From positions 16,926,001-16,990,000 of the forward strand of contig NC_086381.1 of NCBI RefSeq assembly GCF_036588685.1: a stretch of 64,000 nt of DNA. Reading direction: 5' to 3'. Positions 18,466-64,000 of this stretch are shown here, piece after piece. Source of the stretch: Mytilus trossulus (taxonomy: Eukaryota). The first letter of the stretch is position 1. The number at the start of each line of letters is the position of its first letter. The translations under genes were made by a program, and so were the position numbers. The notes below the pieces were generated by a model. That model saw nothing but the letters and a program-made list of their open reading frames with translations. It searched no databases and was not told where the DNA came from.

Positions 18466-18846
18466 AATCTTGCTTAACCAGTGAATGGATATGCATGAAA
18501 TATTTCAGCCACAGAAGCAAACAGCAATCCATTTACCTTGTTTTCAGACACAAATGGTGTTGCGTAATTAATTTTTAAACAAAATTACACAAGTATTTTT
18601 CCAGATAAGTCTTCACATCCTCACCAACTATTCCATTTTAAAGCAAGTAATAGATTTGGATTGAATTTTTATATTTGTTTTCCAATATTGTTTAAGAGTA
18701 TTGAAAGAAGCATTCTTATTGAATTCACAGTTACGAAAAAGCTAATTCAAGCCAATTTCAAGGAATTAATTTGGTGGTCTGTTTGTGACCTCTATCCAGT
18801 TAAAAAATAAAATCCTTACACCTACACTTCATTAATCTATAATTTC

Positions 18847-19864
18847 ATAATATCAAGTCCCCTTTTTATATTTAATCACAAAAGTGAATTAAAAATAAGA
18901 TATGAAGTAATAATTTTATACAAATGATTTTTATTATAAAATAAATTGTATTTTTATAACATGTTTGTTCTAAATAAAAATGTATAACAATCAACATTAT
19001 TAAAAAAATAACCATAAAAATATAAAATATATCACAGATTCAGTTTATTTCATTCAATATATCTAATAACAGTTCTTCAAACAAGGTAAAATTGCCGTGG
19101 CCCATAGTATCATATCTCCCAAATATCTTGATATTTTCTTCTGGAACTTCTGTCCTTATTAGTAAGGTGAATCAATTTCCTTGCTAATTATTGGGATATT
19201 CCAAATTAAACCTGCTATAATCCTGGAGGCTCTGCAAGAAAAAAAATATAGAAGTTAAGTTACATTAGTTATTTAACAGGTTTTCCCAATTGTACATTTC
19301 ACAGCAATATACATACTTACATTTGGGGTCCTCAATGCTTTTCATTTTGCCTTTTTGACTGTTTCGATTCAAAAAGGGACCAAAGGGGCAAAAGAATATG
19401 ATTTTGCCCTCAGTATATTAACTCATCTTTGACTTTTGACACTATTTTAGCTTTTACCATTTGAAGGAAAGCTTTATGCATAGGACTCAGTATATTTCAA
19501 GTAAATTAAATAATATGTATGTCAAATATTTTTTATAAAATATTCTAGTTTAAAAACATTAAAACTAGACAAATTACATATAACTTACATCTTCAAATAT
19601 AGGACTTCCATGTATTTGACCTGGTACATGAAGTAGTCCCTCATCTTTAAGATACAAGGTACCAGTAGTCTGATCAATTTTATAGTATAGCGGCCCATAT
19701 CTGTGGTATGTTGGATATTTTGTGATTGAAGGTAAATGGATGTGATCATTAACCTCTGTTCCCAACAGTGCCACATTATAGAACACAAACTGAAATGAAG
19801 AAAAATCATTACTTAACATAATACCAAACCTTGGTTTACATAAAGGGTCTTAAAATATAAAGTC
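18847..19864 (-). repeat. Segmental duplicate (copy A) of the last two exons and 3' UTR of the mega-TSP-like gene; exons 19789-19589 and 19231-19184
   Basis: Near-identical to 22193-23209; frames open; AG/GT sites and AATAAA retained. Confidence 0.9.
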
Positions 19865-22524: not shown

Positions 22525-25500
22525 CTAATTATCAGGATATTCCAAATTAAATCTGCTATAATCCTGGATGCTCTGCAAGAAAATAAAAATATAGAAGTTA
22601 AGTTACATTAGTTATTTAACAGGTTTTCCCAAGTGTACATTTCACAGCAATATACATACTTACATTTGGGGTCCTCAATGCTTTTCATTTTGCCTTTTTG
22701 ACTGTTTCGATTCAAAAAGGGACCAAAGGGGCAAAAGAATATGATTTTGCCCTCAGTATATTAACTCATCTATGACTTTTGACACTACTTTAGCTTTTAC
22801 CATTTGAAGGAAAGCTTTATGCATAGGACTCAGTATATTTCAAGTAAATTAGATAATATGTATGTCAAATATTTTTTATAAAATATTCTAGTTTAAAAAA
22901 ACATTATAACTAGACAAATTACATATAACTTACATCTTCAAATATAGGACTTCCATGTATTTGACCTGGTACATCAAGTAGTCCCTCATCTCTAAGATAC
23001 AGGGTACCAGTAGTCTGATCAATTTTATAGTATAGCTGCCCATATCTGTGGTATGTTGGATATTTTGTGATTGAAGGTAAATGGATGTGATCATTAACCT
23101 CTGTTCCTAACAGTGCCACATTATAAAACACAAACTGAAATCAAGAAAAACCATTACTTAACATAATACCAAACCTTGGTTTACATAAAGGGTCTTAAAA
23201 TATAAAGTCTTTATAAACTATTCCCAACTACTAATCTGAACATTTCTCTAAGTTTTAAAAGTCTTATTCTTAAAAAAAACTTACTGACTTTTCTTCACCA
23301 AGTCAAATACCTACCCTAAATCCCAAGCCAAGTAAGGAATATGACAGTTGTTATCAAATAGTCTGTTTCTATGTATGTTCGTGGTTGGTTTTGTTGCAGT
23401 TCAGTGTTTCCATTGTTTCACTCGGTTTTAGTTTGTAACCTGGATTTGTTTAATCCAGTTATGACTAATGAACAGCAGTATACTACTGTTGCCTTTATGT
23501 ATATTATTTACCCCTTGTCGTGCAAGAGGGTAGGTGGGGTTAATAAAATGGAGAAGAATGGACACAAAGAGCAAAATAGAGGGCTAAAATTAAAGAATAG
23601 ATAAAAAAAAATATAGGCAAAACAAGTGAAACTGCGAGCTACTGCTCACTGATGACACCCCCGCCGCAAGTGGATAATATAAATAGTGTAAAAATATGCA
23701 CGTGTTCGGTAAACAGGAAGTTGTCAAGTGATGAATTTGAAAACGCATCACACAGTATAGCTGACTTACATAAATCCTGAAACCAAATTTCAGAAATCCT
23801 TGAATTGTAGTTCCTGAGAAAAATGTGACGAAAATTTTGAATTTGCTATCATGTGTAAAATCATACAAGTATTCGGTAAACAGGAAGTTGTCAAGTGATG
23901 AATCTGAAAACGCATCACACGGTATGGCTGACATATAAATGTTGATACCAAATTAAAGAAAGGTTGGATGTGTAGTTCCTGAGAAAAATGTGACGAAAGT
24001 TTCATGGGACTGACTGACTGACTGACGGACTGACGGACTGACAGACAGAGGTAAAACAGTATACCCCCCTTTTTTGAAAGCGGGGGTATAAAAATAAAAT
24101 AAAAAAAGAATAGATAATAATCAGATTCTAAATCATAAATAATACTGAAAAAAAAGGCGAAATAAATAGAGAAAAATGCTATAAAAACAATTTATATAAT
24201 CAAAGAGCAGATTACTCTGAGGGATACGATTGCCGTTGTTTCATTGACACATGTATATATGTAGCTGGATAATATTATTTTTAAAACAAATTCAACTGCA
24301 CATGTCAAATAGTTACAAAATAGCCAATCCCGGATAAAAGTGTGTGAACAATGTAATCAGACCTATTGTGTTTTATTTTTGTACTATCAAGATTTATTTT
24401 TGTACTATCAATTCCAAGTTTACTTTCCACAGCAGTCACTGAGACTCAGAGTGAGAGAAGGTTACAAGGTGTTTCACTTCTTATCTTATCACCTATTTTT
24501 TACGTTAATTCTAGAAGGAACCCCATTCCTAAGTCTTTAAATATTTAATTTCCTATGGGTCAGTGATCGTGACTCCTTTCCGTAAACATTTATCGGTTTA
24601 AATTGCGATCGTTTTTTTTTTTTATATAATACGACTTTTATTGACAGAACGAGCTGATTCACGATTTCAGAATTCACAGAAGTAACTTCCGGAAGGGAGA
24701 CAACTCGAAACGATAATATGAAAGAATTCCATTTCGACGAAAGGGGTGTTCTACGATGTCGACGATATTTATTTTAATTTAAATGATGCATATGATTTAA
24801 AACTATGCAACAACAACAACCCTCAATAGCGGACATATATAGAAAAGATCCCATGAGTTATAACTTAATTAATTGAGTGGGGAATCTAGAGCAACCATTC
24901 AATCTTAAACCCCTTGAAGTCAAGAAAAATATACGCATGCGCATGATTTCCAAAACAAACCCTGAAGCAAGAACATATATTAAAAGTTTATTAAACGACC
25001 TAGATGGTTCTCTATTTCTTTATGGAAGTACAGTCTCGAATATCAGTTTCATAACGGTAACATATAAGAAAAACTGCACTGCAGTTCTTATATGACAGAA
25101 ATAGATTGATCGGAATTCAGAGAATTCTCGCATTTTACCAAAACCGGGAATTCCCTCTGACGTGTTTCTAAATTTATAAATACACTAAATATAAATACTG
25201 CTTAATTCTGATTTTCCGTGTTGTTAAAAACACGCTTATAAGTCAAGGGAATTATCAAACATGAAGATTATGAAAAGAACATTATAGGAAAGTTGTTTAA
25301 GTTCAATCCCTTTGTTTGATTTTACCTTTTAAAGCAAGACAATCATAAGAATCCGAGATGTTCCTTAATGTTTAGAATAAAACGATTGACGTGAGGGAAA
25401 TGCTCTGAGCCACCGATATAAGTCTACAGATTGCTTGAAAGCAATCGTATCCCAATAAAAATTAGGAACCCTCCATCCACACTCTTTGCTACAGATCAGA

Positions 25501-27805
25501 TTGAACAGAACCTAAATCATTGATTAAGGTTAAAGTATTCATAAGTTAATGAGCTAATACAGGCGTCACACATCAGCCTATACCTCCGACGTACGTCGAG
25601 CATGATAAAATAATCATGTACGCTGCCAATACGCTAGTAATTTAAATGCATTGAACCTGTCAATGATATCTGTATCGTGTGCACAACAATCTTTAAGTGT
25701 GTATTGGGCGTACGAGAAGCGTAACTAAGCGTTTATCAAGTAACGTATGTTGGCGTATGCCTGGCGTTTATGTAATGTAGATGAAATGCACGTATCTGTG
25801 ACGATAATCTGTGCTTTCGGCGTGTCTGGGACATTTTATTGTGGGGTGTTTGTTACAAAAACACCTGCACACGTTTTTGTTAAAGTTGAACGATCTCGAA
25901 GCGTATACAACGTGCACTAAATGTGTCTCAAACTTATCTGTAGTATTTTAAAGGGGCTTGTAGCGTATGTAGTACGTCTGTGTGGCGTACAGGTATACGC
26001 CAGACAAACGCTTGAGCTGGATGAATTTTTTATGCTACTTAAAAATTAACCAAGAGTATACATTTAAATTTCAATGTACTTCAAACTTATGCAATACGCG
26101 TTTAACGATTGATTAGCGTTCCTCTGTAGTGCAACTAACGTATACCGACTTTGTGTTAATTATGTCTGTACGTATGGTGCACGCCAGTCTATACGCCAAT
26201 GTGTGACGTCGGCATTAGAGGAATTATGACCTAAAGTGAGATTTATTATGTGCTTACCTCATCAACATAGCCTTTATAGAAGTTATTGGAGTTTTTCCCC
26301 AGGTAAAATAAAGTATCTTCATCTGTGGTATATTGTGTCTAAAAATATAATTATTTTAATATTCAATTCAAGATGGCTATCTTGCTGGTATATAAAATTT
26401 GATGACAGCAACTTTATTGATCCTTTAAATTTGTCATTAAATGATGCAAAGGGAATCAAGTACAATATTGGTACTGTGAATGTTACATAACTTTTCCATT
26501 TTATGGCCTATAAAATCAACTAAATCTTGAGTAGATAAATATTTTTTATCTTTAACTAATGATGAAGAAAGTCAATGTACCTCGCCTTGTGCAGATTTGT
26601 ACATTGTGTCGTTAAAAATATATAAATATTCAAATCCATTAAACTCACCAGGTCAATAGGAGTAACATCACTAGTTACACCAACTGAGTTTCCATTCACA
26701 TACAAAGTCATTGAGTATTCTATAAAAAATTAAGACCATATGTCTATTTTAAAATAGAATCATAAAATCTTTAGTCGTAAAATGAGCCTGATGTATACAA
26801 TTAAAAAAATATATTTTTGAAATATATTTGAAAAGTTTTTGTCCCATTTTATCTTTAAAAAGAAACAGTATTAATAGTTCTCCTTTTGAAAAAAAAAAAG
26901 ATTTTTTTATTCAATCTTTAATAAGATAGCATCCCCATGATATTAGTAAACAAAAATTACCGATCAAGGTCAGCACGTTTTTCATCATCAAGAATGGTAT
27001 GTCCACACCTAATAGAAACCTCTTACTAAAGTTTAGCTCTCCATTTTCTAGGAGACAAATGTAACGCATTTCTAAACTTTATCAGGAATGGAAAATTTAA
27101 TTATTTTTTTAACCTTATTTAAGATATGAGCTGCGTCCGATAGATATAGACCTTATGCAAGTGCAGGTGCACATATTGTGAACATGTTTAAGATTTTGAT
27201 TGAATTTCAATTCTTGTTTCCTTTAGCTCAATCAATTGGTTCAACATTGAAGTAGTAAGGCATGAGGAACAGAATTTGCGTTACCAGCTACCAACCTTAC
27301 CTGGGTTGGGTTCAATATCGTAGCGGCCAAATAGGCCTATGTAGATTTATGACTATTGGATGTGAAGCTATCCAAGCCGCTACATAAATATTGAAGCAGC
27401 TAGGCTAGCTACTCGTTCAGTAGTCAAAAATCTACGTAGCCCTATGTAGCTAAGGATATTGAATGCAACCCTGAAAGACAGGTAGCTCAATCAATTGATT
27501 TTAAAATGAAGTAAAAAAGCATGATAAACAGAATTTGTGTTTCTAGCAAACAACCACCTGAAAACTCTTGCTTTATCTCATTTGAACTTTCTAGTATAAT
27601 CTCACCTGATTCATCATATATGTACAATAAACTGATCCATTGGTTTGTATTGATAGTGGATGTTGATGTTACTGTATTGTTTCCGTAAGATCCATGTACA
27701 ACACCTCCATCTAACCATAAACATATAGTTCTAGTGTCTGTACAAAATAATGGCATATCACCCCCTGCCAATGAGTCTACCTTAATCCATAGTCCAACGG
27801 AAAAA
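22525..27805 (-). CDS. C-terminal LamG/pentraxin-like region of the mega-TSP-like protein
   Basis: [11 protein letters not shown]...[20 protein letters not shown]...[25 protein letters not shown]. Confidence 0.8.
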
Positions 27806-30800
27806 CTGTTGATAGCAATAAATGCTTTTTAATACATCGATTGTTTTATAAAAAAAAATAAGGAAAAGTGAATATTTTTATTACTGTCGATTCATTATTA
27901 TTCATGAGATACCACTTTTGTTGATTTTGTGGGTACGGGTGAACCATGCAATAAAATGTTCAAAAAAGTACAGATTTTCAATAGGCTTGTTGAAGACTTT
28001 TGTAAAATCATGAAATCAAATATCCAAGTAAATTTTACTATGTCCTTAATCCATGGAAATTGGTGCCCACGAAAAAACAACTGACTCCACAGTAGTATAC
28101 AATCCAGCCAGTTCAATGTGCTGATTGAACATTTTAGTTAAAAAGCATGCAAAGTTTAAAAGGCGATGAAACTACTGATCTGTCATATAACCTTTCCCAT
28201 CAGAACTTGATGTGATTTCAATATTTTTTTTAAATGATTTTATGTTTTAATCTGTCAATCTAATTTCCTACATGCCAAATTTTTTAATTTGTTTATTAAA
28301 AAGCGAATTTTGGGTTTAAAAGAAATTAAGTTACAAAGTAGTTATAATTCAGATATATTTTTTTGGGAAAAATCCTGACAGTTTTTATACCTCAAGAATT
28401 AAATATTTCACATGTAAATTACAACAGAAGACATTATTTGTTATTATGCACTAAAACCATAAGGACATGGAAATGAAATTCAATAATTTGAATACAAGGT
28501 TTTATATCTATTCTCACCTTTGATAAATGTCTAAACGAGTGATATTGGTAAGTACAATATAATCATCCACTCCATCAAGATACAAAGCTTTATTGTCTCT
28601 GGGGAGGCACTGGACCTTCAGATCAGACCATAAAACTGATTCCTGGCCAAACTGGTACACTCCAACACGACCTCCAGTTATACTGGTGTCATAGATGTCA
28701 CCACTGTCAGCTAATAATGAATCTACATCATACAATTGGAATCTGAAATGATTATGAAAAATTATAACGTTTTGCTGTGTTTGGTTCTGGGTTTTGATAC
28801 ATATAGGAAGATGTGGTATGCGTGCCAATGAGACAACTCTCCATCCAAGTAACAGTTTATAAAAGAAAACCATTATAGGACAAGGTATGGCCTTCAACAC
28901 AGAGCCTTGGCTCACACGGAATAGCAAGCTATGAAGGGCCCCAAAAATTACTAATGTAAAACCATTCAAACAGGAAAACCAACGGTCTAATCTATATAAA
29001 AACGAGAAACGAGAAACAAGTATGAACTACATAAACAGACGACAACTACATGTACTGTACATCATATTTCTGACTAAGGACAGGTGCAAACATTTTGCAG
29101 CGGGATTAAATGTTTTAATGGTACCAAACCTTCTCCCTTATCTGAAACAATAGTATAACATCACAACATAGAAAGACACGTAATCAATTATCAATTGGAA
29201 AGCTTAACTCAATCAAAAAACGCAAATAAACACACAATGAACGAAAATAAATTTGATCTGTGATACCTGAATGCAAATACATGGTAAATAAAAATTATAA
29301 GGGATAAATAATTAAGGTCAAAAGTAAAAAAAAACAGGTTTAAACAAAGTAAAAGTATGATACCACTGTGAAATGTTAACAATTTTTTGAAAATCATCAC
29401 TTTTGAAAAAACCTGTGTCATATTATACACAGGTAAATGAAGCCTGCATTTGAAAGAAATCACCCAAGTGTTATCATTTTTTTTAATTTACATTTCATTT
29501 AAATGTACTCAAAGTTGCACTTCCAATTGTCCACAATAATTAAAGCATAAAAGTAAAATCGTCTTCTAGTTCTCCAAAATTAAACCCAACTAAGCAGGCA
29601 AATTGGATATATTTATCGATATTTATGACCTCTTTTTCTTTCCAGTGGTGTCAATAAAGCATAACAAGAGGTTGCAGCCAATATAGTATTCAAAGTAAAG
29701 TCCAACTGTGACATGCATTAAGTAAGGTATGAAATATTGTAGAAATAAATTTGTGATATAAATACCCATATATATATTTCCATCAAATATTGATGAAAGT
29801 GCCGACATACAATGTAGTCAGTATTGAAGTTGCATAAAGAATGAACCTATCATTTCAACAATCCCATTTTATAGATATAAAAATATCTGTAGATGTCTTG
29901 GTGTTCCGTTTTAAATCTATACTTTAGTTATCTACCTGATCTTATTTAAATCTGTATAATGCCATAGGAACCATTTATATGATGTGTAATTACTCCATCT
30001 TGTCATGTTACCATCCTGCCATAGTACTGTAACCTGGTTCACTGTTGTACTACTGTGCCATAGAGCATAAGCTAATGTTTGTCCAGGACCAGTATTGGAG
30101 TTCACTACCTATTTGTAAAGAAATATGGACACATTTAAATTAAATGATATGGACAATAATCATAGTTTCAAAAAGTACTTATTAAATTACAAAAGTCCAA
30201 TAAATAATACTTAAAAACATATGTTATCCGAAAGTATAAGTTGAACATGTTGAAACCACACGTCATAAACTGCATATCATGCAGATGAAAAAATACACAA
30301 CAATTTGACCCCTACATGCGTATTAAACTGACTTTTGAACTGAATAATAACAAATGAGTACTTAAAAAAAAAATGGATAGTAAGACACATTATACAATTA
30401 CCTGTTCATTACTTATACTGGACTATAAAAACTATTTTTTCTTGGAAACCTTAGGCTTTTAAGATGGAACTATCAATGGAATTAATTTTGTAACAAACTT
30501 CATTCTTATTCAAATATTCATATTAAAATAAACTTTGTACAATTCATAGAATAACAAAAGACCCTTGTTTTGGAATGAAAATTACCATGCATTAACATGG
30601 AACCCAAATGCAATGAAAGACAAGAGAGAATAGTTTCCCTCCAATTCAATACATTCAAACTTATAAAGGAGAAAAATTATCCTGCAGAACTTAAAAATAA
30701 TGCAATATACACACATATGTAAATAGTTTCTACAGAATTACCTTTAAGTTGAGTCCTTTAAGACCAGTCTGAAAAGTTGTAGTTTCAAAATTGTAATTAG

Positions 30801-33800
30801 TTGGTTTCCATGACAAGAGATAAAACTTCCTATTGTTAACATAACCAAACACTATTCCAATGTAGTTATCTCCCTTGTCTGATGGTACATAAACAGTTCC
30901 ACTGTATTTCATAGACCCATATGTCTGCTCACCTATTTATAAAATGATATATAACTGTGTACTATAAGGTTTTTTGCCAAGAAAGAAAGGAAACATTGGT
31001 GACCTAGCTTCTGCTGTAGTCTGTTCTATGGTCGGGTTGTTGTCTCTTTGACACATTCCCCATTTCCATTCTCAATTTATTCTAAAGTTATGAAATTAAG
31101 TCAAGAGTGGGTTTTAATCAAATATAACTTAATTCAGAATTCATCTATACAGACTTGCTTGGAAGACATTTTGAATAAATTTCTGTTGTATGTGTGTAAA
31201 ATGTCACTGATTTCACTTAATTTATTTCACAATTCTAATCTGTATCAGGTACTTTGTAACCAACAAACTGACCTATTAACATGACTGGTTTCATAGTATC
31301 AGCTAACTGGTATATCTCCCTGCCTACTGCCTTTACTCTCCATTCAGGATCTATACTGTAACCAGGATACAGATCAACAGAGAAATAATCAGAGAAGGAA
31401 GTTGTAGATATATATTTGTTATATGGACAGGTATCATTACTGTCATTCGCACCGTCCCCATCAGAGTCAACTACACAATCATCACCAACCTGGTCTCCTG
31501 AATAATACAATATACTTAAATTTCCAGTTTGAAAAAGAAACTTTTAACAGTTCAGTTAACAATTTGACATTTCGGATGTTTTATTTCATTAGAATTGTTA
31601 CAACAATGTTATGATGTCAATGTAAATTTTTTGAATTACATGAGGGTTATTTCTGCTATTAAAAAAGCAGCAAAAAATTACAAAAAAGGTTCATATAAGT
31701 TATGTTGTCCATTTATTTCAGCTTGCTTACAAGTGTCTTTTTTAAAAGTAAAAAAGGTACTAAAGATATGTACAAAATACTCATAAGTAATAAAGTGACT
31801 CCAACAGGACAACTGAAGTGGAGTGAAATATTAGGTGAAGATCTCATTTGGAAACATATATTCAAACTACCTTTTACAGTCACTGTCAATACTAAACTAC
31901 AGTGGCTTCAGTACAGAATCAACCATAGAATTCTTGCCACAAATAATTTTTTATGTAAAATCAAACTTATCGATAACCCTCTATGTACTTTTTGTAAATT
32001 AGAAGATGAAACCATTGAACATATTCTGTGGAATTGTGAGATTATCCAAAAAATTTTACAAGATGTAGATTATTGGTTCTTATCTGGTGGGGTAAGCCTG
32101 CCATTAAATAAGTTGAATTTTATTTTTGGAGATATAACAAAAGTTCGAAAAGGTGACCCATATAAATTGATTTTTCTATACATGAAACAATTTATATACA
32201 ACAGTAGATGTTTTTCAAAAGATCTTTCAATCAGTGCCATTAAAGAAAAGTTAAAATATATGTACAATTTAGAAAAAATAATGGCAGTTAAAAATAAGAG
32301 ACAAAAGCACTTTGATACCATGTGGAATGCATTCAAAGTATTATTTTTATAATTCAATTTGTCATTTGTTTTTACAATCTATATTTATTGTCAAAACAAA
32401 CATAAAATATTACTGTATCTAATAGCACAATTTATTATGTACTGAAAATCTTACGGGATATTTTTTATATTTTTTTCTTTTTTTACAATTCTTAAGTGCC
32501 ACACAGTGGTACATGAACATTTAACTCTAATAATATTTTTCTTCTGTACTTTCTTACTTCTTTTTTTCCATATAAATAGAAAAAATGAATTTACAACAAT
32601 GTTTATTGTCATAAATAAATATATATTCAAATTTATCGCTAATATTACTGTATGTATGTTTGATGTGTTGTATGATTGATTGATAATTGCTGAACTTCTA
32701 ATTATTGCATAAAATACCCTTCTTATGATGTGCCTACTGCTTCAATCATATACATACCGTTGATATCTGTCTGTAGAGGGTTATGTAGGTATGAACAATT
32801 ATCATCAGAGTTGTATATACATACCGTTGATATCTGTCTGTAGAGGGGTATGTACATATGGACAATTATCATCAGAGTTGTTTATACATACCATTGACAT
32901 CTGCCTGTAGAGGGTTATGTAGGTATGGACAATTATCATCAGAATTGTTTATACATACCGTTGACATCTGCCTGTAGAGGGTTATGTAGGTATGGACAAT
33001 TATCATGCTTATACATACCATTGACATCTGCCTGTAGAGGGTTATGTAGGTATGGACAATTATCATCAGAATTGTTTATACATACCATTGACATCTGCCT
33101 GTAGAGGGTTATGTAGGTATGGACAATTATCATCAGAGTTGTTTATACATACCGTTGACATCTGCCTGTAGAGGGTTATGTCGGTATGGACAATTATCAT
33201 CAGAGTTGTTTATACATACCATTGACATCTGCCTGTAGAGGGTTATGTAGGTACGGACAATTATCATCAGAGTTGTTTATACATACCGTTGATATAAGCC
33301 TGTAGAGGGTTATGTAGGTATGGACAATTATCATCAGAGTTGTTTATACATACCATTGACATCTCCCTGTAGAGAGTTATGTAGGTATGGACAATTATCA
33401 TCAGAGTTGTTTATACATACCGTTGATATAAGCCTGTAGAGAGTTATGTAGGTATGGACAATTATCATCAGAGTTGTTTATACATACCATTGATATCTGC
33501 CTGTAGAGAGTTATGTAGGTATGGACAATTATCATCAGAGTTGTTTATACATACCATTGACATCTCCCTGTAGAGAGTTATGTAGGTATGGACAATTATC
33601 ATCAGAGTTGTTTATACATACCATTGATATCTGCCTGTAGAGAGTTATGTAGGTATGGACAATTATCATCAGATTTGTTTATACATACCATTGATATCTG
33701 CCTGTAGAGGGTTATGTAGGTACATTTTTGTATGGACAATTATCATCAGAGTTGTTTGTACATACCGTTGATATCTGCCTGTAGAGAGTTATGTAGGTAT

Positions 33801-36800
33801 GGACAATTATCATCAGAGTTGTATATACATACCGTTGATATAAGCCTGTAGAGGGTTATGTAGGTATGGACAATTATCATCAGAGTTGTTTATACATACC
33901 ATTGACATCTGCCTGTAGAGGGTTATGTAGGTATGGACAATTATCATCAGAGTTGTATATACATACCATTGACATCTGCCTGTAGAGGGTTATGTAGGTA
34001 TGGACAATTATCATCAGAGTTGTTTATACATACCGTTGATATCTGCCTGTAGAGAGTTATGTAGGTACGGACAATTATCATCAGAGTTGTTGATACCATC
34101 ACCATCTAAATCAGGATCACAAACATCTCCTACATATATCAACATAAATACAGTCTTTCATTGAAAAAACATCAGTATCATTAACATCAATGACCCATCA
34201 CTTTTCATCAAGCTGCTTAGCAAAAACCGGTATTTTGTATTTCAATTAACTTTTTAGCCACTCACATATGTGATTTCACCATAGTCTGTATTCGCCTTTC
34301 CAAAGTCACGAGCACGTTATTAGTTGATTGCAGTTTTTTTTGCTGATTTATCTTTTTTTTTTATCAATCAGGTTGTTAGTTTTTTCATATGCATTTGAAT
34401 GTCATGTCAAGGCCTCTTATTGCTTACTATGCTGTATGGGATTTGCTCATTTTCAATACTTTTTACAATAATTTCAAAATGACCATACTGTGACCTATAA
34501 TTGCTCATCTATATAATTTGGTTTCTGATGAAAAGGAAACTTCTTATCAGTCATCACATCTTCTAATGAATATGACTAAAAACCATAATATTTTTAATTC
34601 TTTTTTTAAATTTGTTTCCTTGAATATGTTGTGGTAATTTATAAGGATAGTCATGGTTTATGACTATTTTTTTTTACTGTTTTTTTTTTTCATTGTGTGA
34701 TTTTTACTGCATTTATTAACTGGTATAGCAGGCAAACTGTCAACTGTTACATACACAAAAAAAAAAATTTTATGAAGTACATACGACCTTACCTATACCA
34801 TTCCCATCTGTATCTGTCTGTTCACCATTAGCTGCCTCCTGACAATTGTCACCGATGTCAAGGACACTATCTCCATCCCTGGAATGATGGTAATTAAACA
34901 TAAAATTATAAACAGCATCATTAACATTTCTATCAAAACAGAAGTCAAAATATCTCAACTGTTTTATTTCTTACTTATGATAATTTCTTGATTAAAAAGT
35001 TTCTATAAAACTCCTTTATCATTCATTTTTTTCAAATTTTGTTAAGAGGTTAAAGTTTATTACTTCTACAAATGTGTCATTCAATACAGAAATAACAAGA
35101 ATGTGTCTAAAGTACACGGATGCCCCATCCGCATTACCATTTTCTATGTTCAATGGACCGTGAAAATGGTAAAAAATCTCTAACTTGGTATACAAATTTA
35201 AAAGATCTTATCATGGGGAACACGTTAAGTACTACATTTCAGGTCGATCAGACTTCAATTTCATTAATAACTACCTCAACCAAAAACTTTAACCTGAAAT
35301 GGGACAAACGGACCAACAAATAAACAAACAGATTCACAGACCAGAAAACATTATGTCCATAAATGGGGCATAAAAATAGTGGTAATCAGCAAAAAAAAAA
35401 TTAAATCCTTAAATACAAAAAATAAATTACACTATTTTGTCACATTTTTCTTTAATGAAATTTTCAATATCATGCTTTTCGAGTCTAAAATCTAACTGTT
35501 ATTAGTTACACAAAAAGAGAATGTATGACATTATGAGACTATTTCCTTGACTATGTCTATGAAAACAGGATCTACAGATTTTCTACGGTCTTTCAAACTA
35601 AAGGATGTTTCCTGGTTATATCTCATCTCAAACTATACCCTACAAGGAGATAGAGGCTGATAAACACCCTCTTCTATGATAAAATTTTAAATCTTCAACC
35701 TGATAATTATATATGTATATATGTGTTCCTCCTCGGAAAACAAAAGAACACATTTAAATTTAATTAAGTTCATTTGATATTGCCTCACCAAAATAAATAA
35801 AATGCAAGTTTAAATTATTGCGATTAAATTCCTGTGTCATTATGTACAATAGCAAAAACATCACAATAATTTCTGTATTTACAGTTTGTCAAATAGATAA
35901 ATATAAACCAGTTGTAATTGACAAAGAATATGTTTTGATTTAAGGTGTGTTGATATACCTGTCCTTATTGATAGTGGGATCACAGCTATCACCATATCCA
36001 TTCTGATCTGTATCTGTCTGGGCAGGGTTTCCTATACTTATACAATTATCACAAACATCACCAACATTATCACCATCTGAGTCCACTTGTGTTGGATTGG
36101 TTTTCAATGGACAATTATCTGTACCATCTGGTCTACCTAAAATGAAGAACAAATTTTTAATTAAAACTTTAGAAGAACTAATTTCTACATTTGCTTCAGT
36201 ACTAGTGGATCTGACAAAAGAAGTAGCATTATTTTCATTCAAAATGTATTTACTGTGAATATGCTACTCCCCAGAAATAACCATATTTCAATTTTGATGA
36301 AAGTTGTCAATCTTAAGTTTTGCCTTTCATTCAAACAAATAATATTATGAAAACGATTCCATTAAATGATACTCTTCAAAGAATGTTGTCCGGCATGAAT
36401 TAGCACATGAATCTCAATTGCACATGTATATAATAATTGACACTGCTATTATATTCTGCCAAGCACAAATTGTTGTTTGGACTTCATTTTGTTTATTTCA
36501 TGCATAAATGTCATTTGATCATGCGATTACAACCCCACAAATAACCTGTACCAAAACATATCAGAAACTATGATATTGATCAATCCCAAAGGACAAGGTA
36601 AGATAAGGGCTGTATTTGAACCCCCCCCCCCCCTTTTTCCTCATTTTTCGAAATTCTGTTTTGGAAAGCTACTTATTATATTAAAACATTCCATGAGGTT
36701 TGAAGTTTGTTTAGATGAACTTCAAAACCACTAATTTTGCAACTGTGTTAGGTAAGGAGGGTTATCTTTCTGTTATTATTCAAATATTGTAAATTAAATT

Positions 36801-39800
36801 ATTATTCATTTTACAGGTGAGTTTACAACACTTTTTTATCGAATGAGAAGTGTTTTTGCTGTCTAAATCGCCTTTTTTTTCAGGGTCACATACGCACATG
36901 CTATTAAATTTTAAGAAATAATGGCCATAAATCATTATTTTTCTTTGTTGATGCCCTTTTACCCCCCTAATCTCACCCATTTTCTGAAATTAATGGTTTT
37001 GAAGTTCATCCAAACAAACTTCAAACCTTAGGGAATATTTTAATGTAATAAGTAGCTTTCCAAAACAAAATTTAGAAAATAGGGGGCCAAAAATAGGCTT
37101 TATCGTACCTTGTCCTTTAACCCTCAAAAAGTTTAAATTTTACAATAAGGGAAGTGTTTACATACCATCATTGTCATCATCAGTATCACAGGCATCACCA
37201 ACTCCATCTTTATCTGTATCTATCTGATCTGTGTTAGTGACGGACGGACAGTTATCACACACATCACCTACTGTATCACTGTCAGTATCTGTTCTATCCC
37301 AACTATGTACATACGGACAGTTATCCTGTAATCAAACAACAGTTAACAGGTAAAAGTTTTCACTTTTGATTTTTAAATGCTTATAACAAACAAAACATGA
37401 TGATTTGACATGAAATTTCTTATCAATTTGTACAAATACAGGTGGGAAAGAATTGTTCATACCGTAAGCACTTTTCTAAACACCTTTTTTGTTTTGTTTT
37501 GAGCAATAAATCATCAATGTAGCCTATTATTTGACCAATATATAAAAAGGGGGATGTTTCACCTAAAGAAGTAGGTTTAGTAAGACCTCTTTTTGGCCCC
37601 AAAATATAGCAGTCTTACAAAACAGATAAAATGTAATCCTTTAGTAGAATGTTTCTGCTGCACAAATATGGGGTGTTTTTGGCAATACAATGCACATATA
37701 TCGGGTACTAACATCATTAAGTCATGCTATATTACTGAAATCTTCACAATTTTAGCATTTTAGTTAAATTTTAGATGGTTTTCGTCCTAAATAAGTGGCC
37801 GCATTCGTGTTCATTCATAATATTAAAATGAACAGTGTATTTGATGATAAGAAATAACATATATGGATGAACATAGATGGGAAATTTTATTTTTGACAAA
37901 AAAAATCTGAAAAGTGACGATTTTTGGCATATTTGATAGATTTTTTATATTTAAGCTTGAATCAGAGCGTTTCTAATTACTTAATCAGTTAAAATCTTTC
38001 ACATAAACTAATTGAATCAATTGGAATAGACATTTAAGTGTTTTTAAAATATTTCAAAATAATTTCAATAGATGAACCTGAAATTTGAGGCCGAAATCGG
38101 CCCTTACCGGACCTACTCCTTTAGTATAATTTTAAATTTGGTATTCCTGTCGAGCCATAATTGTTGAATGCTTACAACATTCCATTTTTACTAACCACAG
38201 TTACTTATAATACCTACAAAAGTATCAAAGATACAATTGTTATCTAAATCATTATTATAGCCATCAGTTATTCGTTTACCATCAATAATAAGACTTACTA
38301 AAGGATCGATAGTGCCATCATTATCTGAGTCGTTATCACAATCATCACCGATTCTGTCTCCATCAGCATCTTCTTGTCCACAATTTGGTTTCATCCGACA
38401 ATTATCCTGTAATAAACATTTTAGAGTTAGTGTGACACTCATTTTCAATAAATTAGTATACATATTTGTTTAAAAAAGCTGAATTCAACTATGGGTGCAT
38501 GATTTTCTCAGTGTTGAAGACTCATTGGTAGAAGTAGGCTGTTTCTTCTCTTCAGTCTGGTTGATGTCTCTTTGACACATTCTCAATTTTATAAACATAT
38601 GGCTTTCCTAGTTGCAAGTTTGCTTAAGTTTTGAGAAGAAATACCATTCTTCATACTTTCATAATTGTATTTAGAAATGATATCCAAGGAACAGGGCTAT
38701 TCTAGTAGGTCCTTCCAAATGATATTGAATATAATACCAATTATTCAGAAAGGACTATCACAGAAGAAGTAAGAAGACAAAAAAATCCTGCTATTATGTT
38801 GAAGTCGACAATTACAGCTCTTCACTTTGTTCCTTTTTATAAATTTTCTTTCATATAACAATTACACAGACATTTTCACCTGTGCTTGTTGCATGATTCT
38901 TTTTTCACTTTTGGAAATCCTGTGAAAAAAATAGCATATAAGTATAAAAAAAATATAAAGGATTGATTAATTCTTTTGTTCCTCGATGACATTAAATGTA
39001 GAATCCTAAGAATAACCTCAGAAACCATTGATACGTACATGATAATATCCCCGGTCTGTACATGGTAATGTTATGTCTGGGTGGTCATCTAAATCGGAAT
39101 CTTAAGAATAACCTCAGAAAACATTCATACATACCCGATAACAACCCCAGTCTGTACATGGTAATGTTATGTCTGGGTGTCCATCTAAATCTGAATCAAA
39201 ACCACAGTATTTACCAGTACCTGTGTATCCAATGTTACACTGTAACAAAATATATATTTTATAGTAAAAAGCTTCTCATAGCAAACTATCAGTCAACTGT
39301 GTATATATTTTTATTCTTATCCTTTATTTTTTTCTTATGAAAAATGCTTAAGTTTAAATACAAAGCAATGGAATATGAGTGCACCTCAATTTGAACTAAT
39401 TAAACAAACAGCTGCCACAATTTAAGAATCATTTTTAAATTTTTGGGTGCTTTGTGAACTTGTTTGTTTTTTTTCTTTCTGCATTGGTAATTGTTATTTT
39501 ACACAAATGTATTTTCTTTTCAAATTTTAAATATAAGTTTTTGTGACAGTTTTAATTTTAAAAGGTATATGTTCTTAGTCTGAGTAAAAACTAGATCTGT
39601 CAAACTGACACGAATGGCCCCTCCCTAAAAGTGTGGACACATGTGGACACAAACATGATGGTAGTCTCACATATCAAAAATCAGCTCAAAATCTGAAAGG
39701 CGTATAGAAAAAAGTCTGTTTATAACTGTGATTTTCAACAATTTATCAAAGTCCAAAGGCTGTAATTTCGGCAAAAATTAGCAGAGCAGAACGAAACGTA

Positions 39801-42800
39801 AACTTGATCTGTAACTCATCATGGTCAACTTACATACCATAAATCAGCCCAATATCTGAAGGCGTTTAGAAAAAACTCTGTCTAATGGTTTGTTGTGGAA
39901 AGACAGAATGACGGAATTACTGAATTTTGGAATTTTGGAATTTCAGACAAGCGTAAAACTATATGGCATCAACAACTTCGTTGCGGGGCCATAAAAAAGT
40001 AGCATGCTCAGATAATTCTTAAACAACATCAATTGGTAAAATGATTGCAAACTCAACACAATACAAACCTCACAAGAATACTCCCCTGGTCCTAGGTAAA
40101 TACAGGTAGCATACTGTGAACAGGTGTGTTGTCCAGTCTGACAGTAGTTAGAAGAGTAACAGTTAATACTTGGTATACCAGCATACCCTTCTGCACAAAA
40201 CCCACAGTAGTAACTACCCTGTTAAAATAAATTATCACTGTTTATCATCTGTCCAAGTGTATGACAATCTAACACATACAAAACATCAATATGGAAACAT
40301 ACTTTTTCAAACGTAACACAGTCTTTTATTACCTCCTATTTGGTATATCAAATTTCTTTAACTATATTTAAGTATTCGTGTTTGAAGCATATTTTTGATA
40401 ATCTCTATTTAAAAAAATACAATCTAATATTACCTTTTATTCTTTTAATTTTTTATATGTCATATGTTCATTTATAATAATATGATTGAATCTAAACAAA
40501 GGAACAATACAGTTTACTAGTCGATATGAATATTGTAGTGAAATTCAGTCCAGCCATATTCTACCTGTTATCTAAACTACTTTTATATATGTAATCCTTT
40601 GTCAATATCATGATGACTATAATATTTGGTTTCTTTTCAGATATAGGAAATTGTTCGGTGAATTTGAATAACTGAAAATTATATATTTTTCTTACTATAG
40701 TATTAAAGCATGGAGACAATGGATCACATCTGCCGTTATCTGTTAGACACTCATTAATATCAACACAAATCTGTTCCTGTAGGGGAGCTAACTCTTGGTT
40801 CATTAGCTCAAACACTCGGACTGTATTATTCCATGCCAGTCCATCTTCATAGGTACCAGTATATCCATATGGGCATGCTAGACACTGGTAACCAGGAACT
40901 GTGTTTATGCAGGCTGATGTGTTCCAACAGGGATGATGTAATGCACACTACAAAAGATCAAAGTCAAAGACAGCAAATATTAAAACAAACTCTTATTTTG
41001 CATGAAATATAAAAGTAAATTGATGTAAAAAGGCTTGTAAATTTAATTGTTGCATGAATAGGTTAAAAGACAAAAGATTCAATTGTCCATTATTGTTTAT
41101 CTGGTATTCATCTTTAGAATCTATTTTTTAAATAAAGTAATTGTTATTGACTTTTTTGCTTTCTATTTTCATAGATGTACCATTTGAACAACACCATCAA
41201 TATTGGTAAGTGTGGACAAATTGATAAATTTAACACTCATGAAACTTTAAACTGATTATTTCAATTATTCTTAATAATTTTGCAGCATACTTTTAATTGG
41301 ATATAAATGTGTAATACAATTCTTTATTCTTTTGGTTACACTTATACTTTTGTTTGTTAATCTTCAGAATGACCTTATAAATAGTTAAGTACAAAAAAGT
41401 GAAGAAGCCAGATATCATATCACTCAAACTCAAAGTTATATAAATCATGTGATACCTCATCTATATCAGCACAGGTTACTCCATCACCAATGAATCCTAC
41501 TGGACAGTCTAGACACTCATAACTGCCTGCTCCTTTGTTTATGCATCCTGCTCTACTTCCCCCAGCTTTAAAACAGGCTGTATTTCCCATACAAGGGCAT
41601 TCTGTAGTACTAGTACAGGCTATACATCCTACTTTCCCGTCACCAAGACTATATGATCCAACGTCACATGCATTACAGCGGTCTTTTGACTTGCTGCTAT
41701 AGTAACCAGACAGACATTTTTTACATTCTGATTGGCCCGCCTCATCCTGATATAATCCTTCTGTACATATGGAACAAAATTCTAAAAAAATCAAACAAGA
41801 GAAAAGATAAATTTTATCAAATTTATGAACAGTTTCATTAACTTTTATTTTTTCTTCTACAGCATTATGAAATCATCCAGATAAATTGTATGCTCTCACC
41901 CAAGAAGGACCCACGGGCTTAATGTTTTGGGCAATTTACCAAGAGAATCTATATTTGACGACTAAAACTGATTGATTTAACACAAAATACCATAACAACA
42001 TTTGTACAAGCTTACCATCGGTGCCCTTAGAATAAGTTCCTGGGAGACAAACGTATCTCTGGCCACCTCTACATGCATGTCCAGGCTCACAAAGTGTACA
42101 TGTGTCAGGGCAGTATGTATCATTACATCCCAATACATATGTAAAATTAGCACATGGTGTGGCGTAACCATCCTTACATATCTACAAAATATAATGTATG
42201 TGTAAAATCCAGCACATATATATAATTATAAAATGGTATGGAATTTACATCCTTAAATATCTACAAAATAGATCATAAATGTAACATCAATCAAAGGAAA
42301 TATCACAATTATCCCTTGATATGAAAAAAATATGTTACATTTCAAAAATATATGTATTTAATTCCAGAACATATGTACTACGTAAAAGATACTCATCCTT
42401 ACTAAGTACATGTATGTTATAAACATATTTGTCCAATCCATGCTGAATTCTAGTTGTTTACTGGTTGTCTTAATGTGTTACTGGTTTTGTGTAAAGAACA
42501 TTTACAGCATTTGTCCCCTATTCACATAAACAATTTCCAAATTGACCTACAGATGTCTAGTTTAGATAATTTCTGTGGTTGGATTGCTTTTTAAGTGTAT
42601 AAAATATTAACATAACATAAGTATATAGAATAGTTCTATAAAACTTTCTTTAATAGAAGAATTCAAACTATATTAGATGTATTTTTTTGTGGTTTAAGGT
42701 TGCTATTTCATTTACGTTTAACCCACTCCTCTTTCTCTCTGACATATAACCCACACCTACTTCTCTCCATATAAATATCAATATCTACCCAACCATCCAG

Positions 42801-45800
42801 ACAAGGTAAACACTCTGACTGTGCACCAAATGAATGTTCTGTAGGACTTCTATCACATGGGTCAGTTGCATTCTCACATCGTCCACACATATGTGTTTCT
42901 CCATCTCCCAGGCAATAAGAGGAGGTATAACACCTCTCACAACTGGTATCATCTGTAAATATTAGGGGGAAAATCAGAGAGGATACAAGTTTGTAAATGC
43001 TTGTTAAAATCAAATATACAATTATTTTACTTCTTAAAAGAAACTAAAACCTAAAAAACCAGATGGCTGATGTTGGCTTTTTTCATTTCTTTAATAAATT
43101 GTTTGCTATACTAAAACTTGACACATGTAAATTTAAAAAAAAATGTCTTTTAATTCTATTTGATTTTTATAAAAAAAAAAGTTGAAAATAACCCTCCAGA
43201 ATAAATATCTCCTCTTTATGAATGGTTGTCTCATTTGCATGTATACCACATTAATATACTTTTTACTCATCCTGAAAGAAATATGCTGTAAAACAGTTTT
43301 AAACAGGTCTTAAGAATAAGAGAAATTTTGATGATGACATATTTCATAGCAAGTTGTTAAACCACTTAGAAAACATTTCCAGCTTACAATAATACTGTAG
43401 TGCTAGAGGACATCCAGACAACTCCATCCTTAATCCTATGTTGTTTGTCCAATTCCTGGGGTTAATTCTGATATACTGAGACACTATTGGTGGAACAAGA
43501 TCTGTAGTCCTTATAGTATCCTGGTCATTATTACCCAAAAATATCTAAAATTAGAAATAAATTATTTGTTCTATTGACATGGTTTAAAGCATATCAGGAT
43601 TAAAACTTATTGTCATCCCTATCAAGACAATACTATTATAGATTAGTTTTCAAATATGCACTTACGTTTCTTTATGATTCACAGCTTTCATAGCACACAG
43701 AAAATATTTTTAAAACATAAGATTTTAATATACTTATATGAACATGGAATGTGCCTTGTTAACCTAACAATACTTGAATTTTGAATTTTGAATTACAATA
43801 TTTGTCCAAGCTGGTACTACATAGTAAAAAAACCTTTCCAAACTTACAAATTCCCCGCGATCATTTTTGTAAAGTATCCAGTTTCCTGCTGTTTTATGAA
43901 AATAATAAACTCTGAATGATGTAACCCAATTAGCTTCATCTTGTTGGCCTTGTAAATGTATCTGTTTAATCTGATAGAATTCTTCCATGTTGACCTCTAT
44001 GTACTGGTCAAGGTCATTGGTGCCTGCTACCCATCCTCCAGTAAGGGGACCAAAAACAGCTGTAATATATAACAATGCCAGTGGACTCAATTGTAAGAAA
44101 GTGTGTCTACTGAAGAAGGACATACGTATTATTTAGATCAACCGACTGATGATTTTAAAAGTCTAGTGGTAAATATTACATGCATATCAGGACTATAATA
44201 TATATGATAAGATATGATTATAAACCTTGCTTTTTAATAAATCATCACACTAATCTAGATTCTTAACGTGATAGTTTTACAAGGTAGCAGCTATAAGCAG
44301 ATATATAAATCACCTTGAGCCACACATTATTCTAACCCCTCCCCGTCACATTGTTTTTTCTTTTCTAAAATAATATCTTTATTGCACTTTTCTTTGCTGT
44401 TTTGACTAAATACTCGACCTATAGCAGTTGGCCGAGTATCCCTGTGAATTAGTCACTGGATAATCATGGAATTTATTCAGTGGATTCATATCTATAGATA
44501 GTTTGTTAATTTTACACTTCATAGGTAACACATACATCTGAGGTATACATTTTACCAAAAAAAAAATATTGTTTCATGATTACGGAAAATGTACAGTTTT
44601 GTCCGGTTTTGTTTCTAAAGATTATAATTAAAAGATTGTTTAAAAATTCATTTCTGAAAAGTACATAAGCGTCTATGCTTTTTTGTTCATAATTTGGTAT
44701 ATGAGTTCTTTTATGGAATGAATATATTAAGATAGTTTGGAAGAGATTTATATCTTGATACATAGGATCATGAATGTTCAATAGCCCAGTGCTGAAGTTC
44801 TTAAATCAAATATATGTGACCCGATCTTGATTTTGCTTACAAGTACATATACTTTCTTCCAAAATGCATGTAAGAATTGACATTTAAGAAAAAAATAATC
44901 GTAATCTTCAGTCAGGTAACACAAGTCACACATACTTGAGTTTTGTGTGTTCCATTGTAATAGTAATTGTTTACATATGGATATAATGGAGTAATTTCCA
45001 TTTTAACATTATATATTTGTTATTAATAAAATAATTAAATGTAAATTGTAACGTATTATTTATTGGATTAAACGATTCTAGTTTGAAGATTTTTTTTCAA
45101 TTTGGAGAATCCTATTGGTCTCTCCACATTTATGTAATTTAGATGATTGTATATGTCTTTACATGACATATTTTCAATTAGCTCTGTTTTTTTGTTAACA
45201 GTCAAAGACAAGTTTAATTTTGTTTTTACAAAAGTTTTCAACGATTTGTCAGATTTTAATGTATTAACCCATGGTTTTGGAATAGAGTTTTTCAATTTTA
45301 ACAGTTCAGAGATACAATTAGGTTTCGATGTTTATTTCCCTAATATTACTTTTTGCGAAATAATCCCTTTTTGATCTATAATGTCATTAATGAAGATAAT
45401 ACCGTCTTTTTTCCAAATAAGGTAAACTAAACATTTTCCTTTAAATTTTATATTTTTATAACCCCACAACATTTGCTGCCTAATATTTCTGTAGTTAATG
45501 ATTGATGTGTTGTTTGAAGATGTTGATGTATTGTTTGATATATACACGCTCTTTAATATGTTGAAGTGACAAGAGGGTAGTGTATTACTTAAGTTAGGTA
45601 CTGAGTTTATGTTATCTGGCATCATATGAAATATAAGGTTGTTTTTACCAAATTTGTTGAAAAAATATGTTGGAATGACTTTCCAATTGGCAAATTCCTT
45701 TGTCGGTAATCGTTTAACCTATGAAATTTTTAATGCATATAAGAAATTATCAATGTCTGTTATTTTCAGACCTCCATTTTTATAATCTTTGGAAAGTAAT

Positions 45801-48800
45801 GAACGTTTACCTTTTCTTGTTTGTTATTCCATATCAAATTGTATATAATTTTTTTTTAAATCTTTTATGTCGATTTGGGGGTATCGAAACCACCGAAGCT
45901 AAAAAAGTAAGTTTGGGTAAAATAAGTGCCTTACCAATTGTTATTCGACCTATCATTGTTAAATTTCTTTTTTCCCAATCAAGTTTTCTTTTTTTTACTG
46001 TTTCATTGTTTTTTTCAATATTTAATTTATCACATTTATTTTTATTTAATCCAAGGTAGACACCTAAACTTTAATTAGTTCTTTATTCCAGTGTATATTT
46101 TCATTTTTTTAAGTCTGCTGAACCATATACCTTCTGTTTTAGATTTATTCAGTTTTAAACAAGAAAGCGTTCCAAATAATACTATTAGGTTCAATGCTTG
46201 GTGAATTTCATATTTAGAATTGAAAAAGAGGGTTGTATCATCAGCCAATTTAGACTATGTGTAATTTTATTTTACTCCTGACCTTCAAATACCAACTTGT
46301 AAATCTTTGGATTGACCTTGACAGGAACTAAATCTGAAACCTCTGGCACTTGATCTGAACATGCTATTTACAGCCTAAGTGTTGTAACATGCAACAATTT
46401 CTGCATTTCCTTTTTTATGTATTATTCATTAACTCAAATTAACACTGAATTTCGAATTCAAATCAACATCGTATAGTAACTTCATTGTATACGTGGAAGA
46501 CTTACGATCGGACGCATTATTTCCCAATCTAGCTCTGACAGGTAGGGTCAGCTTACTCCTGGATGAAGAAGCTGACATCTGATCATCTCTTATCAACCCA
46601 TTATATATACCAATATAATCTGAGCAGGCTAAAAGTAGATGTATTTGTATTAAATTATAAATAACCCATCATATATACCAAAATAATCTGAGCAGGCTAA
46701 AAATAGATAAATGGTAATAAATAACTGAAATGGTTGTTTTTAAGACATGTGATCAAAATAAAAAAAAACATTACATACATGAAAAGTTTAAAAGGTTTAA
46801 TTTTGGAACTCGAGTTCTGATTTCCATATGCCAAAACAATATCTTGATCAAAGTTTCAATATTATTATCACTGGTGAGACCTGAAAAAACTGAGGTCATA
46901 AAATGTATGTTGAGATAATTCTAGCAAACATTATATATTATGGAAAAATCTTTTGATAAAAGTGACTGGCAATTTTTTACAAGGCTTTGAAATATGACTT
47001 CCCTTTCTTATGTCACATTAAAACTTCCTTATAAGTGTACCAAAGGATAATCACAAGGAAATGACATGTGGAGTTTTTCACCTTTCAAATATAACTTATT
47101 AGCAATGTGAAAAGCAAGTTTCTGGTATTTTTTTTCAAATTTCAGAATTTTTGTATTCTATTTACAATATGGGTGTGAACAAATAATGATAGAACTTGTG
47201 GAGTAAAACTTACTATAATTAATAATCCAGTACCCTGGTATTCTGAGGTAGACATCACCAGACGATTGGTTGACTGTGAATAACATATAAGTTCTATCTA
47301 ACCACTCATCTATTAGACACGTATTACTGATATTGACTGTAACGTTGACAGCACTACCCCTTGGTGGTGTCCCCTGATCTATCCCAACTATCTCTAACGT
47401 TAGTTCTGTGCTACCATTGTACACCTGACGTCTGATATCAGATATGTTAGTGTAATCTACTGGTGGACTGAAAACAATATAATCTGGATCATTTTACTTC
47501 TTACAACTTTTACTGCATATCAACCTTCGAAACGTTTCGTTTTAAGCACATGAAGATGAGAACACAGTGATACTTTATACGTATCATTGGTATGTTGTAT
47601 TTTTAAACACTTCCTCAACAAGGCAATAGTACGAAAACTGTCAAATAATCTCATTAAAGATACCAGGATTGAAATTTTGTATTTACACTAGACGAACTTT
47701 TCGTCTTCAAAGGACTCGTCAATGATACTTGAATAAAAAAGGTTAAAAGGTTAAAAACAAAGTTGAAGAGACTTGAGGACCACACTAACTAAAATTTTTG
47801 GCAAATACAGCTAAGGTAAACTACATATATTTCTGATGTAGGAAAGCCTTGATATGTAAAAATTTCTAAGTTTTGTAAAAAGCTTATTTATAACTATGAC
47901 TATATAAATGATGTTCTCTGGTGTATAATGGCATTGCTTAAACGTTTAGAATAAATATGCTAGGGTAAGAGTATGATTTCCATATATGATGAGCTAAATG
48001 GAGGAAAAGAAAAGGTTCTAATGAGAGCATTAAAATATAGTATTGAAGAAAGATTCATTAGTATTAGCAGTTCAAATTTATAAAACACCACAGTATTTAC
48101 ATTATTTTAAGATACTATCAACAGTACTGTACAAGCAGAAATTATCGTTGAGGTTTGAACTTCATTTATTTCGTTGAAAGAATATCTCCATGAAATTAAA
48201 CCTCCCAAGTAAATTTTACCTACATATAATAACACTTAAATTTTATGGAAACAACGAAATTAAATCCCCATGAAATCTTTCATAGAGACAAAACCACATA
48301 ATTTTAACCCCACGAAAATTAATGTTTCTACCATATCTATTATTTTGTATTTACTCATCAGTTAATACCAATTTTCCAATCAATATTGACATCTCATATC
48401 ATCTCCTCAGAGGTGTACATCCTTAAAATAATTGATCTAACCTTTCATACATTACAGGTGATATGTAGACCTGTGTCTCAGCGTTGATCCCGCTGTCAGA
48501 ATCCATTGACTGTACATTAAACAGAGGATCTAACTGTAGGATAGGTCGTGGTGTGATGTACGATATACTGGTCAAACTTGGACAGTTGTCATTCACATCT
48601 TGTACACTAACCTGTACAGATAAGGTTCTTTCATATTAGTTATAATCACTCTTTTAGGTAAATAGATTAAAAGTTAGAACAATATTTTCAGCTCATACAC
48701 CTAAAAGAAACTTAGAAGTAATAATTTTATATATTGGACCCCTTTTGTTATATAGTTTAAAATACAAGAAAACTCATGTCAAATACTTGGTATTAATAGT

Positions 48801-63505: not shown

Positions 63506-64000
63506 CTGAAATTGAAATCTAGATATCTTAGTACCAACACATTTATTCAATTAAAAGATTTATAATTATTTACATTTTCATAATTTAATCCTATTCAACT
63601 TATTTTTTTCAAGAAAAAAAAATTCAACAAATAAATGAAACCATGATTTTGAGAATCTGAGAACATGTTTGTTCTAATCAGATTTCTTCTTTTATATCTA
63701 CCGTTTGGGACACATTTCAAAATTTAAGCGTGAAAATCAAAACATATTTTTTTCAATTCTTTAACATGTGTACATGGTGTATGTCTTTCAGATGAAAATG
63801 ATATGGAAAAATGATTGAAAACAATAATGTGTCCATAGAACACGGATACCCCACTTGCACTATCATTTTGAATGTTCAGTGGACCGTGAAATTCAGGACA
63901 ATACTGTAATTTGTCATAAAAATTTTAAAAAATCATATCATAGAGAAGATGTGAACTAAGTTTCAAGTGTAGTGGACTTCAACTTCATTAACAACTACCT

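Follow-up and report, generated by a model that had tools for sequence, protein, structure and literature searches.

The 64,000-nucleotide stretch of Mytilus trossulus DNA analysed here as a whole (the window; assembly GCF_036588685.1, contig NC_086381.1, forward-strand positions 16,926,001 to 16,990,000, hereafter C9:16926001-16990000) carries on its minus strand a large gene, predicted to encode a giant protein of the extracellular matrix, in which the end of one exon, exon 39, is tandemly repeated together with its 5' splice site (donor). As judged from its domain layout, the host gene is a Mytilus mega-thrombospondin: single exons match the Pfam families for LRR, cadherin, F5/8, ephrin-receptor-like, EGF, TSP_3 and TSP_C domains, with LamG slightly below the cut-off. 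A partial model of 47 exons, spliced through the first donor of the array, reads through 2657 amino acids (aa) with no stop and with all phases compatible; the gene ends lie beyond the model at both sides, and two acceptors in it are set slightly short. The closest named proteins are from Mytilus. The model shares 94% identity with protein P0003 over 1625 columns, and 42-43% with representatives of 2866 and 2900 aa across the C-terminal 1800 aa. According to Shoemark et al. 2019 (PMC6526912), mega-thrombospondins are typically longer than 2,700 aa, have a signal peptide but no coiled coil, include in their layout a second ConA-like domain besides LRRs, TSP3 and TSP_C, and are encoded by one or two genes per species; the word Mytilus is absent from the main text of that paper. 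The mussel gene resembles these proteins in its LRRs, cadherin, F5/8, cysteine-rich, EGF, TSP3, TSP_C and second ConA-like domains, which follow in matching order, and differs in number, with three tandem copies on C9 as opposed to one or two genes per species. The array and its surroundings comprise the following features.

22934..64000, minus strand: host gene, putative mega-thrombospondin (LRR, cadherin, F5/8, ephrin-receptor-like, EGF, TSP3, TSP_C, LamG), continuing for ~29 kb beyond the window end
34793..34878, minus strand: preceding exon, exon 38, spliced onto exon 39 in X1, X3 and X5
34034..34129, minus strand: source exon of the array, exon 39 of the 47-exon partial model, 96 nt, AG before and GT after, one TSP_3 repeat (PF02412, E-value 6e-8)
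34028..34033, minus strand: donor 1, the donor seen in use in junction contigs
34008..34016, minus strand: three in-frame stops met by translation reading through donor 1
32758..34033, minus strand: 19 extra units, each with an intact donor at its end, mean pairwise identity 94%
33689..33765, minus strand: unit 5, with a 10-nt insertion common to contig C58 (unit alignment)
32959..33018, minus strand: unit 16, with a net 7-nt deletion common to C58 (unit alignment)
31498..32757, minus strand: original intron, picked up again from the last donor on and beginning much like the corresponding intron of the array-free gene copy C9c
31699..32352, plus strand: retroelement-like fragment (zf-RVT, PF13966, E-value 2e-7) within this intron
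31273..31497, minus strand: next exon, exon 40, where the TSP3 repeats end and TSP_C starts, with an in-phase junction to donor 1

The array is genuine: an exon encoding a TSP3 repeat is followed by 20 donors with an identical core at a period of 67. The unit derives from the final 58-63 nt of exon 39, and each extra unit consists of intron positions +1 to +9 followed by the final 58 exon bases; 17 of the 19 units measure 67 nt, one 77 nt and one 60 nt. Tandem Repeats Finder (TRF) reports period 67, 20.2 copies, 91% matches and a score of 2193, by far the top among the 18 rows returned for the window, and since this score stands far above the other 17 rows the array is not a chance arrangement. 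The 20 G|GTATGT donors on the minus strand have their first intron bases at 34033 through to 32757. A first-pass annotation of this DNA had described an array of about 20 copies with period 67, each with a donor, behind a real exon ending in a GTATGT donor, and TRF, the unit alignment, the flanking AG and GT and the TSP_3 match agree with it. The 10-nt insertion it placed in one unit is that of unit 5, whereas the deletion it gave as 9 nt is a net loss of 7 nt (unit 16). The zf-RVT fragment in the array's intron is longer than the corresponding introns of the gene copies C9b, C9c and C57a can hold (619, 213 and 209 nt).

Exon 39 is found five times in the assembly, with 19 extra units in the window, 18 in C58, six in C9b and none in C9c and C57a. 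Across exons 22-47 (4382 nt) all five gene copies are free of stops; 46 of the 47 exons were mapped to paralogues. C9b lies ~100 kb from the window gene and has the identical array breakpoint. The arrays of the window and C58 are collinear, with unit variants in a shared order that includes the 10-nt insertion and the 7-nt deletion, one unit fewer in C58, and point differences. Within one intron, C57 stops and C58 begins almost contiguously, and exons 22-44 of the gene assembled from them are 99-100% identical to those of the window gene; we therefore read the C57/C58 gene as probably the other allele of the window gene. It is nearer to the window gene across exons 22-44, and nearer to C9b across most of exons 6-15.

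Assembly of tandem arrays is error-prone, and read mapping covered the flanks of the array, so that one may ask whether the repeat is an assembly artefact. With a second contig carrying a one-unit-shorter array that shares the ordered variants and has point changes of its own, and with a paralogue carrying its own shorter array, we consider this very improbable. Six short contigs of X20 (kind of data not recorded) over 33969-34073, which cross the donor or a unit junction, point the same way; none meets the 31-letter bridging rule, and X20 is perhaps not independent of the assembly.

Transcripts bear directly on which donor is chosen. Public data were mapped to the two flanks of the array, 31100-32830 and 33960-34900; data sets X1-X5, none recorded as RNA, were taken as RNA since their contigs skip introns. 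Over 31100-32830 four contigs (three of X1, one of X2) enter the acceptor at 31497, and all four extend into the unique 5' part of exon 39; counting junctions into this acceptor by donor, as the first-pass annotation had proposed, thus yields four contigs from donor 1 and none from array donors. Over 33960-34900 the same three X1 contigs, one of X3 and one of X5 leave at 34033 for exon 40, among the contigs listed. In total, all six distinct junction contigs listed use donor 1 (X1 three, X2, X3 and X5 one each; four runs, three studies, P1, P2 and P4). One junction contig each of X1 and X5 has no letter differences from the window exon over 90 bases (34033-34122), and another of X1 has C9b-type letters; therefore the 6-unit paralogue type uses donor 1 too. 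Unit 1 (33960-34023) has an RNA contig depth of zero in X1, X3 and X5, and raw reads of X21 and X24 (47 and 25 reads, too shallow) show no joint among those listed. Hence, at the level of the contigs listed, from animals that may or may not carry the array, spliced transcripts use the first donor and normal splicing is undisturbed.

Reading on past donor 1 gives ...NGMYKQL and then, six codons in, three stops at 34016-34008, so that a stop falls inside every transcript extended to any of donors 2-20, and all 19 downstream donors are therefore unproductive. In this respect the first-pass annotation was right, as it was in counting about 19 decoy donors: the 19 intact look-alikes score 8.9-9.8 bits and the real donor 8.9, with 11 of the look-alikes slightly above it (9.8). 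It had gone on to propose that copy number could tune productive versus truncated transcripts, that is, that the decoys act as a dial whose length sets the share of stop-bearing transcripts, either degraded by nonsense-mediated decay (NMD) or devoid of TSP_C. Such a dial would also tune the dosage of each paralogue. Decoys on a par with the real donor, a premature stop followed by at least seven junctions whichever extra donor is taken, a copy number that varies between gene copies, and the fact that NMD would conceal such transcripts from steady-state contigs all suit this proposal. It is nonetheless decidedly unlikely and finds no support in our data: no listed junction contig uses a decoy, RNA contigs of X1, X3 and X5 are lacking on unit 1, the extra donors are not conserved beyond background, similar arrays are spread over unrelated loci, and the frame stays open in gene copies with 0, 0, 6, 18 and 19 extra units. 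A weaker version, in which donor 2 or 3 is used constitutively at a low level and NMD removes the resulting transcripts, the leak regulating nothing, is favoured by the decoys that outscore donor 1 and by a read depth unable to detect a few per cent; such products are absent from the listed contigs of X1, X2, X3 and X5, and we regard this version as unlikely.

Regulated unproductive splicing would lead one to expect decoys conserved across paralogues, and the array is absent from two of the five gene copies. Among 43 units of three arrays, three of seven donor columns vary as compared with 22 of 67 overall (P 0.85), so that conservation is no higher at the decoy donors than elsewhere in the unit. 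Among the 16 distinct changes between units, 11 would alter an amino acid, which is near the 80% of all possible changes that would do so and thus gives no sign of coding constraint. No selection on the extra donors was seen across these 43 units. The first-pass annotation had also assigned a cryptic acceptor to each unit. An AG does lie 13 nt before every donor, but the identical AG is unused within the real exon, and the unit AGs fall in the bottom 2-12% of this gene family's real acceptor scores. The idea that these AGs pair with the next donor to yield 13-nt microexons, or that parts of the array are recruited as exons, draws on this regular spacing and on the intron gain from such repeats proposed in PMC3087553. 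With such poor acceptors, a length of 13 nt that breaks the reading frame, and no trace of microexons in the listed contigs of X1, X2, X3 and X5, it is almost certainly wrong.

Repeats of this kind have been described elsewhere. Borensztajn et al. 2006 (PMC1557585) describe the 37-bp variable number tandem repeat of intron 7 of human F7, which is polymorphic in length and of which only the most upstream donor is used. They tested in minigenes whether downstream donors become active, the next one taking over once the first is lost, and minigenes with identical downstream donors show no competition, which speaks against the dial. The likeness extends to a first unit spanning the exon-intron boundary, identical downstream donors, length polymorphism and use of the first donor; the F7 unit comprises 4 exon and 33 intron bases in 5-9 copies, the mussel unit 58 and 9 in 20 copies, and the mussel, a mollusc, differs further in having paralogues devoid of the array. 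As cited in PMC1557585, human IFI6 (6-16), CBS intron 13, LMNB2 and PDGF intron 4 carry 10-25 reiterated donors; those of LMNB2 (100 bp, 10-15 copies) and PDGF (81 bp, 16-18 copies) are similar in size to the mussel array and use the authentic donor only, which, together with F7, argues against leakage. In lancelets, minisatellite-like boundary duplications in tandem, termed 'mirages', occur in Adh3 and the globins BflGb6 and BflGb9 and leave splicing undisturbed (Ebner et al. 2010, PMC3087553); somatic instability was reported for Adh3, and the origin of mirages was called unclear. Mirages of this marine invertebrate likewise affect both 5' and 3' boundaries, keep many intact splice signals and differ in length between haplotypes; the differences are the phylum and the five boundary duplications found within one gene in the mussel. 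A literature search with subscription journals mostly outside its reach brought up no description of mussel cases.

The mussel array has a tandem unit spanning the boundary, splice signals kept in 19 of 19 extra units, and an unstable length (19 extra units in the window but 18 in C58, the latter taken as allele, and six in C9b). It belongs to a known repeat type, shows no support for copy-number tuning, and is very probably a near-neutral, donor-spanning minisatellite, or mirage, with use of the first donor. Its birth was likely a microhomology-mediated duplication: in the exon allele carried by C9b and C57a, GTATA stands at both unit ends, one of its bases being changed in the window exon, and a 67-base piece taking in the end of the exon and the start of the intron would likely have been duplicated by slippage at these five bases. 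The first-pass annotation's suggestion of microhomology at the unit joint is supported to this extent, the length being five bases rather than the four of GTAT. Since the breakpoint is common to both, the initial single duplication would predate the window gene and C9b or have passed between them. The array then likely expanded and turned over by unequal crossing-over, which the changing affinity of the C57/C58 gene along its exons would fit. Because the transcripts seen use donor 1, the array would be removed along with the intron and is likely near-neutral, the first donor being chosen, we infer, by exon definition or 5'-to-3' scanning.

Several observations weigh against this near-neutral reading with exclusive use of the first donor. 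IFI6 and CBS, as cited in PMC1557585, are reported to use two nearby pseudo-donors too, a precedent which favours both the dial and a low-level leak, although none was seen in the mussel contigs. Contigs drop rare forms and the raw reads are few, which places leakage of a few per cent below reach, and the animals behind X1 and X5 may lack the array on the transcribed allele. The core from -1 to +6 is unchanged in 41 of the 43 extra donors of three arrays. Finally, three of the six other non-exonic arrays of the host gene span a donor (P 0.002 versus random placement), which neutrality alone does not explain.

These arrays belong to a set of eight with a period of at least 25 that TRF finds in the host gene: four span a donor (110 nt x 4, 61 nt x 2, 96 nt x 2 and the 67 nt x 20 described above), one spans an acceptor (79 nt x 2), one is exonic and in frame, and two are intronic. 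Together with an acceptor duplication of two array-free copies, the further boundary duplications are:

39001..39197, minus strand: exon 34, last part duplicated with its donor, 96 nt x 2 (TRF and mapping)
48998..49113, minus strand: exon 23, last part duplicated with its donor, 61 nt x 2 (TRF and mapping)
42115..42270, minus strand: exon 30, first part duplicated with its acceptor, 79 nt x 2, the upstream one of the two copies being degraded (74%)
L022:6454-6893 (C9:16996454-16996893, beyond the window end), minus strand: exon 8 (LRR), last part repeated with its donor, 110 nt x 4
L013:6800-7047 and L014:2719-2968: acceptor plus start of exon 40, 131 nt x 2, in C9c and C57a, inner copy the intact exon, matching an X2 contig

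The exon-8 array has four copies in the window gene, seven in C9b and six in the C57/C58 gene, with a single copy in C9c and C57a and ~10 bases of microhomology. The X2 contig agrees in seven letters with the inner copy of the 131-nt acceptor duplication as found in C57a and continues directly into exon 39. In all six boundary duplications of the gene family the intact exon lies between the innermost acceptor and donor, using the first donor copy or the last acceptor copy, as exon definition would predict. The host gene may thus be a hotspot for boundary duplication. One could go further and regard the mega-thrombospondin cluster as such a hotspot in which the number of decoys is a heritable dial that diverts transcripts to NMD and balances dosage after gene duplication; this view builds on a single gene family having four donor arrays as well as two duplicated acceptors, and on the series of 0, 6, 18 and 19 extra donors at exon 39 and 0, 3, 5 and 6 at exon 8, and we hold it to be very unlikely.

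To place the locus in its genomic context, 140 stretches of 10 kb (1.4 Mb) at round positions of C1-C13 were sampled with a rough exon-end-plus-donor test, whose classifier, with this gene family as its only training set, may miss donors of other genes. Five of 148 arrays pass, compared with 1.5% of 5920 control placements (P 0.07), and no excess appears at lower thresholds over the 140 stretches. A genome-wide enrichment of repeats at donors, hinted at by the first 80 stretches (3 of 74 versus 0.7%), was not upheld by the second half (2 of 74, P 0.30). The five donor-spanning candidates are L132:6232-6481, L143:3884-4029, L153:924-1131, L190:7996-8423 and L222:7549-9156, the last with ~20 copies and an insert of ~200 nt present twice; an acceptor-spanning candidate, L140:351-495, concerns an LDL-receptor class A exon with strong Pfam support. 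Pfam backing for the donor candidates is weak and confined to two of the five (E-values 0.016 and 0.083); by eye the candidates look right. Donor-spanning repeats hence look common in this genome and, if most candidates are real, simple scaling would put their number in the thousands. Pfam kinase matches were dropped as an exon-end control, the 30 loci being long single-exon matches and tandem arrays; long tandem runs of nearly identical protein-kinase reading frames with a period of ~1.7-1.9 kb, mostly without stops, lie at C1:26.00-26.03 Mb, C3:16.31-16.36 Mb and C4:20.13-20.15 Mb (L070-L087).

Other rearrangements were observed in and around the gene cluster, which consists of three tandem mega-thrombospondin genes on C9 (16.95-17.20 Mb) and two on C57:1.10-1.26 Mb with C58:1-9000. 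The second C57/C58 gene looks like a mosaic of C9b and window-gene parts. In the window, the last but one exon of the model has a further copy downstream (window 22934-23134 and 19586-19792), C58:7560-9032 and 17879-20000 form an inverted duplication of 3' exons, and a Thr-rich exon (window 54933-55042) holds an in-frame 27-nt repeat with four copies, five in C9b.

As it stands, the array is of little significance in itself, being a repeat of a kind described in humans and lancelets that looks common in this genome. Such repeats may mislead gene prediction, as in the M. edulis protein P0002, which has read-through residues after exon 39 and a doubled exon-40 start. If it were true that copy number tunes NMD, the locus would represent repeat-based dosage control between paralogues and be worth much more. 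The cluster is modestly useful for learning how such repeats arise, and its genes, which are almost identical and carry 0, 6, 18 and 19 extra donors along with duplications of both boundary types, offer a natural series for the 'innermost pair' rule of splice-site choice in a mollusc.

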